From UHGV virus genome UHGV-0367998: a stretch of DNA of 18,683 bases, one strand, 5' to 3'. This document shows positions 3,001 to 9,000 of this stretch, piece by piece. How positions within the stretch are numbered: position 1 is the stretch's first letter; every line of letters starts with the position of its first letter. The stretch comes from a virus. A program made the position numbers.

Positions 3001-6000
3001 ACAGGGGGATTTGGCTCGGTACTGCTTGAATGGGATATGCCGAATTATCGCGGTCATTCACTGACTGAAATCTGGCGGGGTACGGAGGATGACCTTGCTG
3101 ATGCCGTGCTGGTTGCCACGACGCCGGGGCAGGTTTACGGTGATCCGGTTGATCCGGGCTGGTCGGGATTCTACTGGATACGCTTTGTTAATGCAGCGGG
3201 AGTGAAAGGGCCATGGAACGCGGTAAAAGGCACTCCCGCACAAACCCAGATAAGCGTTCAGGCCATTATTGACCAGATCAAGGAGGAGGCTGCAAAGTCA
3301 CCGGTGGTGGAAGAGCTGCGTAAGGAAATAAAGAATGCTCAGGGGCAGGCAGTAAAGGACGCGGCAATCGAGACGACGGAAGTTGTGGGTAATCTCAGGG
3401 AAGAAACACTGAAAACTATCGGTGGTATTGATACCCGTGTTACGGGGATGAATAAGTCAACCAGTGAAGAGCTTAATAAGGTAAATGAGCGCATCACTAA
3501 GGTGGATAAAGAAGGCGGTGAAGCTTTCCTGGCCATGTGGTCAAAAAAGACCGGTGTTGAGGGAATTACTGCGGGGATCGGAATTGTTGCAGGAAAAGAT
3601 GGTGAAGGGAAGCCGGTAAGCCAGGTTGCAATTTCGGCATCGCAGTTGTTTGTCTTTGACCCGAACAACCCGGATAACACAGCCTATCCCTTTGTGGTGT
3701 CAGGTGGAAAAGTTGTTATTCCCAAAGCGATGATTTATGACGCGGTGATTGAAACACTGGTGTCGCGGAAGGTTGTGGCGGATGAGGTAAAAGCCGGGGT
3801 AAGTATCACTTCGCCAGTTATCCGGAGTGCCGTTATTCAGAACGGGAACTTTCAGGTTGATTCTCAGGGTAACCTGAATATTGGTGGCCTTTTTAGTGTT
3901 ACGTCGCAGGGGCAACTGACAATTCGTTACTCTAATCAGAATGTTGGGCTGGTGATCCGCAATGATAAAATTGAAGTTTATGACCAGAACGGACGCCTGG
4001 CTGTTCGCATAGGCAGGTTAAGCTGAGCCGGAGGCTGACATTGGCAGAATATGGTTTTGCAATATACAACAGAAACAATGTTAATGTTACGGGCGTGCTT
4101 ACTCCCATATTTTTCCTGGACAGGTTTACGGCGGAGTCGGGATCAAAAACGTATACGAATAAACCAGAAGGGAAAACATTGCAGGCAGTCTGTTCATTAT
4201 TTCCGTGGAATAATGTATTTAAGGACCGGAAAGTACCGAAGATAACCATTAATGGCAATACGGTGACGTGGTCAAATCTTGAGCAGGGGATGGGGTCATA
4301 TATTTATACATTCTGGGGGTGAGTTGTATGTATGGTTTAAGCATTACGAAACCAGATGGCAGCTTGTGGATAAGCCCGGGGTTTACGCCTCAGTGTCTGA
4401 TCAATAAGGGAACTATTCCGGCGACTGAGAAGGCTTTTTTTAAAACGTCAATTCCGTCAGGAAAAAGTTGTTTTTTCTTTATCAGAACAGAGAAGAAGGC
4501 CGATGTCATGTACACGCATGAACAGATTGATGGATATCATGCCTTAAGGCTTCATCAAATTGTCAGGGGAACGAATCCCGGTGTTACGACTGTTTATGCT
4601 TTTGCGAATATGGTTACTCAACCTTCTGAGTATGGTATCGCCATGTATAACCCGTCGGGTGAGATGATTTACCATGGCGAAATGATGCTGCTTGACGCGA
4701 AGTTAATACCAGTTGATATCAAGTTTGAGAAGGATCTTGGATATCCATGCGCAATTATGCCTGCACTGGTTGGATATTATAACTGGAAACGAACACCTTA
4801 TGACCGACCGATTTACACCACATCTACTGGTGCTACAGGAAATAAAATATATTCCTGTGAGCATTATTCCGGTCGTGCAACATGGGATATTCGGAAGCCG
4901 TATATAGATAAAGTGTTGGTCATTAATTCATCAATGTATGACTGATATGCCTGTCAGTATGAATATTAAGTAATAAAACTAAATTCATCTTAGATAATAC
5001 GGGGTTATTTTATTATAGGAAAAGTCTAAAAATGAAACATACCAGAATTATTTTTGCGTGCACAACTTTTGTGATGAGTTTTGTAGCAGCCCCTGCCTGT
5101 GCAGCACAAGGTGACAGTACAGTTTCTTTCGGATACGCTCATCTTCAGCTCTCTGGACTGAACAATTTTGTTAAGGATTTAAGTCTTTATAATCTTGATA
5201 CTTTTAACCGTTTTACAAACAGACACTACTTCAATTCAGGCGAATATGCAGATGCTTCTGTCCGGGGGCATGATGGCAAAGGCAAATCTCCTCAGGGGAT
5301 GAGCATCAGGTATCGTTATGAGATAACGGATGAGATTGGTGTTATAACATCTTTTACATGGGCGCGTTCTATGACTAATGCGCAGGCATTTATTGATATT
5401 AACCCAGGAGATGAATCCAGAGAGGTTAAAAATCCGGCAGCTTCAGCGAGAACTGATATCAGGGCTAATTACTGGAGTCTACTATCCGGTCCTTCGTGGC
5501 GGTTTAACGAATACCTCAGTGTGTATGCAATGGCTGGTATGGGGGGTGCAAAAGTCACCACTGACTTGAAAATTAACGACAATCTTAATCATGGTGCCGG
5601 TAGTTTTTCTGAAAGCAAGAGTACTAAAAAAACAGCACTTGCATGGGCTGCTGGTGCACAATTTAACCTGAATGAAAGTGTTGCTATGGATGTCGCGTAT
5701 GAAAGCTCCGGATCCGGTGACTGGCGCACGAGTGGGGTTATTGTAGGCATTGGCCTGAAATTCTGAGTAATACCCGACAACATGTCATAACCCGCTGTGA
5801 TAGCGGGTTTTTTGTTGCCCGTGCAGGGCAAAAATCGTAGATTATGCGCGGGTGCCTTTCGGCTGATGGCTGGAAGGTGAACCTGAAGGCCTGATGTGGA
5901 AAGGCCCCGAGTCAACTTTAATGTTAACCCGAGGCCCTAACCATCATACCTTAAGCAAGTAGAAGGTTAGCGCCTCTCCACTCAGGAGGCAAGCGCTATG

Positions 6001-9000
6001 TCGCAAAAATCGCTCATCACCGTCACAATTTGTATGACGGTGATCTTCACCATCTGGATGTTACACGGCTCGTTGTGTGAGTTCCGGCTGAATTTGTGGG
6101 GAGCGGAGTTTGCGGCGTTCTTACAGTGTAAGCAGTAGGAAAACCGCGACGGGGACGAAAGTCCCCGTCAACTGGTTGCTGAGGTTCAGCCGATATGGCA
6201 CCCGTTTCTGGTGAGAGAATGGACGACACAATTCTCCGGTATATGCAGCGTGTTGTGAGAAATTCCCGCAACCCTGAATTTATGAATGAAGTTAAAGACG
6301 CCTGCCTTAAAAAGCAGGCATTTTGCTTTGAGGCACCGGATGGTTTTCTGGTGCTGCGTTCTGTGCTCAGTGACGACGGTATCCCTTATGTTCTGGTGTT
6401 GCTGGGTGTGTGTACGGGGAGTGCCGGTGTTGAGCGTTATCTGCCGGAGGTGAAGACATTAACCCGTCTGGCTGGCGGACGCTGGGCTGAATTCCACACG
6501 GCAAGGCGGGGATTTATCCGGCTGGGAAAACGTCTGGGCTTTGAGCGAATGCCAGATGATGAGGATGGCTTCATGGTGTTCAGGATAGCGGTCTGACTGC
6601 CACTGTATTCATTATCGTGTGTAAACCAATTGCAATTCACATTCTGACCCTGCCCCGGCAGGGTTTTTTGTTATCCAGGGGGCCATAATGGGCGGAAAAA
6701 AAGGCGGTGGTGATACCAAAGTAAAACCAACAGCAGCGCAAATAGCACAGGAAGAAGTGGCCTGGAAAGGGTGGCAGGATTATCAAAAAATCCTCCGCCC
6801 GGCTGAAGATAACTTCATGGAAAAGGTCGATGACCTGAACAGTGAGCAGCAGTACGACAATATTGCTGGCACCACAAATCTGGGGTATCAGAAACAGTTT
6901 GGCGAAGCACGGAAGGAGCTGGCGGGTAATCTTGCTCAGTCCGGTGTTGACCCGTCCAGTGGTCGCTTTAACGCGGTAATGAATGCGAACCAGAGTGATC
7001 AGGTAACCGGGCAGATTGACACAACCACACGGGGGCAGGTATCGCAGGCAGATAAGTATGTTGCCGGGCTACAGGATGTTGCGGCTCTCGGTTCCGGTCA
7101 GAAGGCAGATGCGTTACAGAGTTTTAACTCCTTGGCTGACAGCAGTCTGGCAAAAGCCAAATCGGATGCACAGGCGGCGTTTACGAAACAACAGGGGCGA
7201 GCTTCTCTTGTTGGCGCTGGTCTGGGAGCTGTAGGTGCGTACGCGATGCATAAGGCTGGCGGTAACGGAGGTGGTGGCGGCGCTAAAACGCCAGGCACCG
7301 GCGCTAATGCTATTCAGCATCAGGCTCAGAACTGGAGACTGTAATTATGGAGTATGGCAAATACGAAACTCTCGCAAGGGCTGGTTATTCAGGCGCAGCC
7401 CGCCCACAGGGTGACTGGCAGACATCCGCCGCGCTGACACGCCAGCAATACGACGACTGGCGAACCAGATATTTGCCCCGCGTGGCAAGGCTGGCTGACC
7501 TTGGTGAGAACAACAGCCTGATGAATGCACAGCTTGCCCGGGTAGGTGGCCTTGCCACTTCCAGTCTCCGTACAGCGCAGATGGCACAGGATAACCAGAT
7601 GGCGAGATACGGGGTAAACCGTCCGGATAATCCCAACAGTAACACGCTGGGTTTACGTAATGCACTGGCAATTGCTGGCGCGAAAAATGGTATACGGGAA
7701 GCAGAGCAGGATCGCCAGATGAACATACTGACTGGTGCTTCTGCACCTGCAAGACAGCAACTGAGTGTTGGTGGACAACTGGTGTCAGGGTAAGGGGAAC
7801 GATATGGGATACGGTTTACTGGATATTGCGAATCAGTCACGTCGAGAGGCATTACAGGGAATAAGTGACGCCGACAGGCGACGTGAAGAAATTGAGGCTG
7901 CTAACAAGCAGATGGCGGCGCAACAGAAAGCGCAGAACAAGCAGAATATCGGTACGGGCATTGGTACGGGGGCGGCTATGGGCGCTGCCGTTGGTGGTCT
8001 CCCCGGTGCGGCTATTGGTGCTGTCATAGGTGGTCTTGCTGGTTCTTTGTTTTAAGGAGTGGTGAATGAGCGGATTTGCACAGGGGTTACTTGCCGGATT
8101 CAGCACTGTTGACCAGGCAATGACCCGTCGTAAGGAGCTTGGTTTGCGAGAAGCACAGCTTGCTCAGCAACAGAAAAATAACGAGCGCGATTTTGAATTT
8201 GCGCAGTCTCAGTTTGAACATAATAAAGACGTTGATCAGCGGAACTTTGATTACAGAGCCAAAGTTGATGACCGCAATTACACACTGCAGGAAAGGGAGT
8301 TTAACGCCAACCAGAATTACCGGAATGCGTCGCTGGGGATGGAACAGCAACGACTCCAGTTGCAGAAATACAACCAGCGACGGCTTGAGTATAACGATAT
8401 GCTGGCGCGCGATCAGCCTGTGATGGCGGCGCTGGGAAAAGCGATTGATGCGGGTGACCATGATGCGGCTTCTCATCTGTTCGGTAAATTATCGGACGCC
8501 AATCCGCTTAAGATGATGTCAACGGTAGGCTATGCTGCGAAAGCGGGTCAGGCCGTGAACAACCTGCAGAAAATCTTTGATGATAAGCCGGACAGGGCGA
8601 TTGCTTCGCTGAATACCCCGGAAAATCTCGATGTGCTTTCCGGCGTGTTTGCCCCGGAACTACAACAGCGTATTGGCATGCCTGATTCAACCGGGGAAAA
8701 AACGATAAAAGAGGCCAGGATTGGCAGTATCGTACCGGCGCAGCAGGAAGGGTACGTACTTATTGGCCTTGATCTCACATACAGCGATGGCTCCACCGCG
8801 CATAAACCTGTAACAGAATACGGCAGTGCGCACCCTGATGATCAAACCGTGCTGGCGATACCCGTTGATAAGGCTATCGCTCAGGTCAGGGATCGCAGCA
8901 AATTTGCAGAGATATCGAAAAATTATGGTTATTTTATGCCGAAGCAGCAGGGACTTTCTCTGAAAGAGCTTCAGAAGGGGGCCAGCAACGTAGCGGCGGA

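Follow-up and report, generated by a model that had tools for sequence, protein, structure and literature searches.

Nucleotides 5815-6203 of the viral genome UHGV-0367998 very likely form a stand-alone type I toxin-antitoxin cassette of the hok/sok kind, a moron situated between lom and the tail genes and a second hok locus in its phage type. The window analysed here is the whole stretch of 18,683 nucleotides, which is the late region of a Shiga toxin (Stx) phage of the kind exemplified by 933W and Sakai prophage 5 (Sp5). All positions refer to this window unless another record is named, and the strand as presented is called the plus strand. The hokW-sokW locus of 933W and Sp5 has been published (Takada et al. 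2021, PMC8621323), and the background on hok/sok of plasmid R1 is summarised in PMC8621323 and PMC9841398. Here we present the toxin gene, the folded mRNA and the predicted antisense RNA of this second locus, and we weigh the ways in which a hok gene that lacks a mok frame might be controlled.

The toxin gene

5998-6138, plus strand: hok-family toxin gene, 46 aa, identified by Pfam and PHROG matches, by its pattern of substitution and by an identical catalogued peptide

The 46-aa open reading frame (ORF) is present exactly as a preliminary description of the sequence had given it, and it encodes MSQKSLITVTICMTVIFTIWMLHGSLCEFRLNLWGAEFAAFLQCKQ. The Hok-family membership claimed in that description is borne out, since the ORF is a member of the Hok/Gef family by a profile match above the curated threshold: Pfam HOK_GEF (PF01848) scores 33.2 bits against a cut-off of 22 (E = 4e-8), with residues 8-44 placed on profile positions 6-42 of 42. 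PHROG 251, 'MokW-like host killing', matches at 85.8 bits. Models for individual subfamilies fall below their cut-offs, both HokA (NF007290), which is the best NCBIfam match at 38.4 bits against an equivalog cut-off of 89, and the Hok subfamily model NF007279 (22.7 against 73); on the first of these scores we rejected HokA as the identity of the toxin. As read from the sequence, the peptide consists of one hydrophobic helix, LITVTICMTVIFTIWML, followed by GSLCEFR...AEFAAFLQCKQ, so that both the (S/D)LCE motif and the C-terminal periplasmic tail are present. L26, C27 and E28 are conserved across 32 relatives, and both cysteines, C27 and C44, are hard-coded.

The toxin peptide is under purifying selection. 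The ratio of non-synonymous to synonymous divergence (dN/dS) against relatives lies between 0 and 0.38, and the comparison with 933W yields 0 non-synonymous changes at a dS of 0.30.

The Hok catalogue of Escalera-Maurer et al. (bioRxiv 10.1101/2025.08.07.668861) contains an identical peptide, 72_1589, which belongs to cluster 72 and was cloned as LRP157. The accessible part of that preprint places 72_1589 among 45 homologs tested by arabinose induction, and there only 19_179, 60_1482 and 69_1540 are named as non-toxic; the expression assay that the preliminary description had suggested has in effect been carried out on the identical peptide. The catalogue covered coding sequences only, and explicitly made no analysis of mok, Sok or mRNA structure. 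The same description had called the locus unannotated. This is true of the 933W reference record, in which the locus is blank and lies within a 430-bp unannotated gap, but PGAP names the ORF 'Hok/Gef family protein' in RefSeq E. coli genomes and two phage records annotate it as 'Hok/Gef family protein' or 'MokW-like host killing'.

A folded mRNA with paired ends

The tac, fbi and ucb elements are features of the hok mRNA family in the Gerdes model. Counterparts of all three can be assigned in the cassette, together with a hairpin over the Shine-Dalgarno (SD) sequence of hok and pairing between the leader and the 3′ untranslated region (UTR):

5815-5843, plus strand: predicted hok promoter, -35 TTGCCC at 5815-5820, 17-nt spacer, -10 TAGATT at 5838-5843
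5850-6203, plus strand: core of the full-length hok-type mRNA, beginning at the predicted +1 (GGGUGCC) and taken to the end of fbi, downstream of which the actual 3′ terminus lies
5850-5866, plus strand: tac-like 5′ element, GGGUGCC UU UCGGCUGA, with fbi or ucb as its partner
5899-5908, plus strand: ucb-like box, GAAAGGCCCC, pairing as 5850-5852/5906-5908 and 5854-5860/5899-5905
5948-5962, plus strand: leader side of a long-range helix whose other strand, 6172-6185, is in the 3′ UTR, 13 bp in the minimum free energy (MFE) structure
5969-5997, plus strand: SD-sequestering hairpin, covering the hok SD AGGAGG at 5984-5989 and abutting the start codon
6148-6169, plus strand: stable 3′ stem-loop, GACGGGGAC-GAAA-GUCCCCGUC, 9 bp
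6186-6203, plus strand: fbi-like 3′ element, UCAGCCGA UAU GGCACCC, pairing with the 5′ end

The region 5850-6203 folds with an MFE of -161.3 kcal/mol against -114.5 +/- 4.9 for shuffled sequences (z = -9.5, 0/100), and its two ends are paired, in agreement with the structured RNA that had been proposed. For an assessment of covariation, the MFE structure of the window was projected onto an alignment (A4) of 59 cassettes, 55 of them distinct. Across the 55 distinct cassettes 90.9% of cells are paired, compared with 37-43% when the partners are slid, and compensatory change is seen at 26 pairs against 14.4 +/- 2.0 in shuffles (0/500).

The helix that closes the molecule comprises 15 bp in the MFE structure, formed by GGGUGCC 5850-5856 with GGCACCC 6197-6203 and by UCGGCUGA 5859-5866 with UCAGCCGA 6186-6193. 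The 5′-3′ complementarity noticed earlier by eye is therefore real, although its 3′ segment, tcagccga, occupies 6186-6193 rather than 6186-6194 and the pairing is longer than described. The tac-like element is nearly invariant in the 59 cassettes, the last conserved base of the cassette is the end of fbi at 6203, and the two tac/fbi helices are 96.8% and 85.7% paired in 55 sequences, with wobble changes only. The alternative tac-ucb complementarity is kept in 51-53 of 54 distinct sequences, without covariation because both of its sides are invariant. It is predicted in the fold of 5850-6165, whereas truncation at 6172 gives a local 5′ hairpin instead.

Between the paired ends, the SD hairpin is built from AGCGC 5969-5973 with GCGCU 5993-5997 and from UCUCC 5975-5979 with GGAGG 5985-5989, according to both the MFE structure and the alignment, and its outer stem is paired in 99.6% of cells in the 55 distinct sequences. 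The hairpin exists as had been claimed; its left arm, gcctc, is found at 5972-5976 and not at 5971-5975, and fold and alignment prefer a slightly different register. Three compensatory pairs support the helix between the leader and the 3′ UTR (UA:20/CG:17; GC:30/AU:23; AU:31/GC:23). The 3′ stem-loop, also recognised earlier, is paired in 99.8% of cells and contains two strongly compensatory pairs (AU:32/GC:23; AU:24/CG:22/GC:7), but the GNRA loop given as part of it is not conserved among relatives. It sits 17 nt upstream of fbi and, by analogy, is a probable stop for the 3′ exonucleolytic trimming that would remove fbi. The start-codon region 5998-6015 pairs in the MFE structure with 6101-6118, which holds the AEFAAF codons, and both sides are nearly invariant in nucleotides.

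Both promoters of the cassette were placed by homology and not by a strict sigma-70 scan. The predicted hok promoter matches the consensus at 8/12 positions; its -10 is conserved in all eight sequences of alignment A1 and aligns with the hokW -10, and the TTGCC(C/G)-17-TAGATT layout recurs in an unrelated P2-like context (L005).

The Rfam model RF01794 aligns end to end (1-157 of 157) to 5850-6009 on the hok-sense strand with 40.7 bits (E 9.5e-8). For comparison, the model scores 113.5 for hokW, 87.2 for R1, 35.6 for the 933W copy of the present locus and 42.8 for a P2-type copy. RF01794 is named 'sok antitoxin', and in the validated hokW and R1 loci it likewise matches the hok-sense strand (L003 22611-22785, minus strand; L096 332-503). 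In practice it models the hok leader, from the 5′ end of the mRNA to the start codon, and not the antisense orientation.

A predicted Sok-type antisense RNA

The preliminary description had been unable to place the expected antisense RNA by eye. Homology to sokW now places it, as a prediction, on the minus strand:

about 5957-5897, minus strand: predicted Sok-type antisense RNA of about 60 nt, ends approximate (+/- 3 nt)
5964-5992, minus strand: predicted sok promoter, -35 TTGCCT (reverse complement of 5987-5992), 17-nt spacer, -10 TAACCT (reverse complement of 5964-5969)
5901-5938, minus strand: Sok terminator-type hairpin with strand-specific pairing

By analogy with the annotated 5′ end of sokW, the RNA would start at about 5956-5957. 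It would consist of a single-stranded 5′ tail of about 19 nt, a 16-bp hairpin running from 5938 to 5901 and then UUU, with a predicted folding energy of -29 to -32 kcal/mol (z = -6.2). The hexamers and spacing of the predicted promoter are the same as those of the validated sokW in the alignment to hokW/sokW, and they match the consensus at 7/12 positions; at the DNA level its -35 shares bases with the hok SD. In the 59 cassettes there is no variation, or almost none, in AGGTTA and in the CAA of the sok -35. In the published hokW-sokW work, the hokW probe YO-597 reads CCTTGCCT-17 nt-TAACC, and mutation of the sokW -10 released HokW toxicity (PMC8621323).

The strongest evidence that the minus strand is functional is an asymmetry between the two strands of the hairpin. 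When read on the plus strand, the positions 5902/5937 and 5907/5932 form an A.C or C.A mismatch in 53-54 of 55 cassettes (1-2 of 55 paired), and 5910/5929 and 5913/5926 are mismatched in about half (27 of 54-55 paired). On the minus strand, the same four positions form G.U or G-C pairs in 53-55 of 54-55 sequences. The hairpin thus pairs fully only on the minus strand, its stem having been preserved intact in the antisense sequence and with mismatches in that of the mRNA. Together, homology to sokW and strand-specific pairing support the placement of a Sok-type antisense gene, whose transcript is predicted. A preprint on p19 capture of double-stranded RNA covers K-12 loci only.

A hok gene without a mok frame

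5894-5962, plus strand: upstream short ORF of 22 codons, MWKGPESTLMLTRGPNHHTLSK, with a conserved AUG; a possible vestigial or variable mok equivalent of doubtful function

No mok frame leads into hok. Stop codons close all three frames in 5938-5970 and no start codon occurs in 5971-5997, which confirms the earlier impression that a mok-like frame is missing. The ATG of mokW aligns to ATC in the window, and the corresponding frame closes at TAA 5952-5954. Of the 54 distinct cassettes, 40 lack any upstream frame extending as far as the hok SD; in about 14 a frame from the conserved AUG (5894), or from an AUG 27 nt upstream, crosses the hok start to +80 or beyond. From these alignments, mok is regarded as absent or vestigial in the present lineage. 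A strong SD (AGGAGG) of hok's own precedes the start codon by 8 nt.

In the tisB/istR-1 system, an antisense RNA acts upstream of a structured ribosome-binding site by standby-site competition, and istR-1 is trans-encoded and divergent. The present cassette bears no sequence relationship to tisB/istR-1 and the analogy is functional only: the antisense site, 5897-5957, ends about 27 nt upstream of the structured SD, and there is no coupled leader ORF. Repression would be required to act at a distance. More generally, with no mok and with a hok that has its own SD, Sok would have to act either by destruction of the mRNA or at a distance, and not through a block on the translation of mok. In R1, mutations of the mok start or stop abolish Hok production (PMC9841398), so the present lineage must be controlled somewhat differently.

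We also considered a three-way anti-SD switch, in which GCCUC 5972-5976 would toggle between the hok SD and GAGGC 5931-5935 and Sok would force its return to the SD. The fold of 5850-6165 suggested such a switch. Partition functions computed for 5850-6172, once with the Sok target masked and once without masking, did not support it, and the model was rejected.

Relation to hokW-sokW and other type I systems

Identity with hokW-sokW was rejected, because the primer is absent from the window (at up to 3 mismatches), the position and strand are different and so is the peptide. In 933W, hokW/mokW/sokW occupies 58,460-58,734 on the minus strand and the present locus lies in the gap 45,428-45,856 on the plus strand, about 13 kb away. 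933W carries two hok-type loci, and Sp5 very probably carries both as well. The second locus is not mentioned in PMC8621323, and our literature search returned no account of Stx phages with a second hok or of P2-like phages with a hok adjoining ogr.

The two loci share their phage type, and in 933W a single genome. They also share the TTGCCT-17-TAACCT promoter, and have a homologous hok -10, 5′ end (GCGGGUGC), Sok hairpin and 3′ stem-loop. They differ in their Sok-target segments and in the toxin, HokW being a 51-aa peptide (MKQQKAM...) of the Gef/RelF type, and the in-frame mokW belongs to hokW.

With R1 hok/sok (parB) the cassette has in common a Hok/Gef peptide, a folded mRNA closed by tac-fbi with tac-ucb as a possible alternative, and a leader to which RF01794 aligns over its full length. 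Common to both is also a short cis-antisense RNA, predicted here, in which a single-stranded 5′ tail and a terminator hairpin are complementary to the leader, with a sok promoter inside the leader that overlaps the hok SD region. In contrast to R1, the present cassette is without mok and its hok has its own consensus SD; the toxin has 46 aa instead of 52, the leader scores 40.7 bits instead of 87.2, no terminator stands immediately after fbi in the phage context, and the carrier is a phage and not a plasmid.

The chromosomal hokA-sokA of E. coli (NF007290), for which K-12 annotation lists a mokA, shares with the present locus an MxQK N-terminus, a ...WM... motif, SLCE and AAFLxCK. Its toxin has 50 aa, compared with 46 here, and both of its cysteines are hard-coded as well (bioRxiv 10.1101/2025.08.07.668861).

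Weighing the explanations

On the pattern of R1 and hokW-sokW, the cassette would work as follows. The full-length mRNA would be stable and translationally inert, until slow 3′ trimming to the 6148-6169 stem-loop removed fbi and the 5′ end refolded. An unstable Sok of about 60 nt would pair with the leader, and RNase III would destroy the duplex. If Sok synthesis stopped or were outpaced, Hok would be made and the inner membrane depolarised. More speculatively, Q-dependent late read-through would supply hok RNA and collide head-on with the convergent sok promoter, and Hok might in that case appear at a late stage of induction, as has been reported for HokW. The role of such a cassette is likewise a matter of speculation: the cassette could serve prophage addiction, assist lysis at induction or do both, and it might equally well exclude other phages.

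A number of observations count against a hok/sok-type cassette. A strict sigma-70 scan found neither the hok nor the sok promoter; their matches to consensus are weak, and the transcripts of the cassette are predicted. The tac, fbi and ucb elements are so nearly invariant that the cassette alignment offers conservation but almost no covariation for them. Searched with Rfam at gathering thresholds, the whole window gives no matches and the leader match appears only with an E-value threshold, its 40.7 bits being below the gathering score of 59 for RF01794. In the phage context no intrinsic terminator follows fbi, the nearest one lying at 6300-6319 inside the next ORF; in the P2-like context an intrinsic terminator stands about 24 nt after fbi (L005 1901-1928). 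The mok frame is absent although Hok of R1 requires mok (PMC9841398). Finally, equilibrium folding shows no opening of the hok SD: its probability of being unpaired stays at 0.18-0.19 whether the RNA is full-length, truncated at 6172 or masked at the Sok target, which leaves the activation step unexplained.

The absence of mok invites two other explanations. Control might be of the classical coupled kind, with AUG 5894 (SD-like GAAGG at 5885-5889) starting a shifted mok equivalent whose translation opens the leader and the SD hairpin, and with Sok blocking this upstream ORF. The AUG is indeed conserved in 51 of 54 distinct cassettes, about 14 of the 54 have mok-like frames to +80 or beyond, the predicted Sok covers essentially the whole upstream ORF, and no more than 7-11 nt separate the stop at 5960-5962 from the SD hairpin, whose 5′ arm is 5969-5979. 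However, neither the length nor the stop position is conserved, for which reason we rejected the ORF as a conserved mok: it has 22 codons in the window, 8 in 933W, where it ends 76-78 nt before hok, and 1-25 in the other non-crossing cassettes. Premature mok stops upstream of hok abolish Hok in R1 (PMC9841398). Moreover, the AUG falls within sequence that is invariant for reasons of RNA function, that of ucb and of the 3′ end of Sok; no coding role is needed to account for its conservation, which is probably due to these RNA-constrained surroundings. We regard classical coupling as unlikely. A toxin made untranslatable by the loss of mok, in an inactive relic kept recognisable by sequence inertia alone, seems to us very improbable. 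It would agree with the lack of mok in the window and in 40 of 54 cassettes and with the dependence of R1 Hok on mok (PMC9841398); untranslatable toxins have been proposed for several chromosomal hok loci, and chromosomal hokA, hokB and hokC gave no post-segregational killing (summary in bioRxiv 10.1101/2025.08.07.668861). Inertia does not sit well with dN/dS values of 0-0.38 and 0 non-synonymous changes at dS 0.30, with a strong SD of the toxin's own at ideal spacing, or with RNA elements that are kept, compensatory changes included, across two unrelated phage backbones and several genera. In addition, the identical peptide belongs to the tested set and is not one of the three named as non-toxic in the accessible part of the Hok catalogue (bioRxiv 10.1101/2025.08.07.668861).

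The gene might instead encode a plain accessory lysis or moron protein, made from the late transcript without antisense control, its RNA structure being incidental or serving as an insulator between the lom and tail transcripts. It would suit this role that the gene follows the lom terminator immediately and reads in the direction of the late operon, and the paralogous hokW contributes to lysis at induction (PMC8621323). We nevertheless find it hardly credible, as the 5901-5938 hairpin is optimised for the minus strand, the sok-type hexamers are invariant and identical to those of the validated sokW, closure of the mRNA by pairing of its ends is peculiar to the hok mRNA family, and the same cassette occurs as a unit in P2-like prophages outside any late operon. 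A hok/sok-type cassette remains the explanation that we favour.

A hypervariable target of the predicted antisense RNA

5939-5957: hypervariable segment, target of the Sok 5′ tail and position of the mok start in hokW

Within 933W-type cassettes, the segment 5939-5957 has a mean pairwise difference of 0.32 per column, compared with 0.016-0.047 in the stems, the coding sequence and the 3′ UTR; the Sok loop at 5916-5923 reaches 0.25 per column. Among 54 cassettes, 5939-5957 exists in 20 distinct alleles. Because Sok is cis-encoded, the target and the antisense change together. Hypervariability would be expected if selection favoured specificities that do not cross-react, and it could alternatively result from relaxed constraint plus recombination.

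A more far-reaching reading, which we put forward tentatively and with considerable doubt, is that cluster 72 is a naturally mok-less Hok lineage, established in two unrelated phage backbones, in which Sok controls a directly translated toxin. As part of the same doubtful reading, Sok might destroy the mRNA or repress it from a distance. The roughly 20 target alleles could perhaps be specificity groups that let copies, hokW-sokW included, act independently, though we would not lean on this. It is conceivable too, with as little assurance, that the second locus explains why deleting hokW-sokW from Sp5 had only a partial phenotype.

In that deletion, growth arrest was delayed by about 40 min and phage release was halved (PMC8621323). 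The second locus was still present in the deletion experiments and may have masked part of the effect. Of the hok-type cassettes of Stx phages, two in 933W and by inference two in Sp5, only hokW-sokW has been studied. The cassette described here is an uncharacterised paralog in a well-understood family; its peptide was already catalogued, and its mok-less layout and hypervariable target are modest variations. A widespread, conserved mok-less lineage nevertheless offers a natural experiment on whether coupling through mok is essential and on how Sok can repress without it, and the hypervariable segment provides a ready-made set of alleles for the analysis of antisense specificity. There is also a consequence for annotation: with RF01794 scores of 35.6-42.8, which fall under the gathering score, Rfam-based annotation misses the lineage, and the 933W record is blank at the locus.

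Genomic setting and spread

5789-5813: lom terminator, directly before the predicted hok promoter

About 200 Stx-converting and related phages of the 933W/Sp5 type match the region at 93-97% identity, and a prophage of E. coli UCPROB-002 matches it at 100%. The cassette is flanked by lom (5032-5766, Pfam Ail_Lom) and by a conserved phage ORF (PHROG 610), with tail genes and a 2792-aa ORF downstream, and it is oriented in the same sense as the late operon. A second, unrelated setting is found at the ends of P2-like prophages, where cassettes about 80-84% identical to the window lie immediately downstream of ogr (L004-L007, for example L005 1491-1885); one plasmid also carries a cassette of about 80-84% identity. 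Homology between the phage-late and P2-like contexts is limited to window positions 5830-6203, so the mobile unit extends from the promoter -10 through fbi.

The 46-aa subfamily is present in Escherichia, Shigella, Salmonella and Citrobacter, and in at least 274 viral contigs of IMG/VR. A scan of genome contigs for related loci returned only 7 loci. Three of them, with 76-100% peptide identity, are in records labelled Xanthomonas pisi, Planococcaceae metagenome-assembled genome and Vagococcus sp. (L009, L010, L012); these records probably reflect assembly contamination by enterobacterial DNA and were excluded as taxonomic evidence.

Two relatives depart from the common layout. In a prophage of E. 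coli 2013C_3997 (L008 1561-1920), the cassette is a mosaic whose leader and 3′ UTR are nearly of the 933W type and whose coding region is strongly diverged (dS > 1, dN 0.34; peptide MPQKTIIVSILCITILVIVWMIHNSHCEFRLNIMWSQFAAFLQCKQ). It retains the first 17 and the last ~45 coding bases, which are mutually paired in the predicted fold. In IMG/VR contig 2529293141_000015 (L032 1051-1100), unrelated sequence replaces the first ~45 nt of the mRNA, which hold tac, along with the promoter; the remainder is intact, making this cassette a natural tac-less variant.

Annotation places the start of the downstream ORF at ATG 6195, where it overlaps fbi. As the PHROG 610 profile starts at residue 9, ATG 6219 is the likelier start, and with this start fbi more likely falls in a short intergenic gap. 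Inside this conserved ORF (6195/6219-6596), a bidirectional terminator-like hairpin at 6298-6321 (GCCTGCCTTAAAAAGCAGGC) has T-rich tails on both strands. Outside the window, near the right end of 933W, Rfam sRNA-Xcc1 (RF02221) matches above its gathering score with 69.1 bits (L003 25137-25225, corresponding to 933W 61136-61224).

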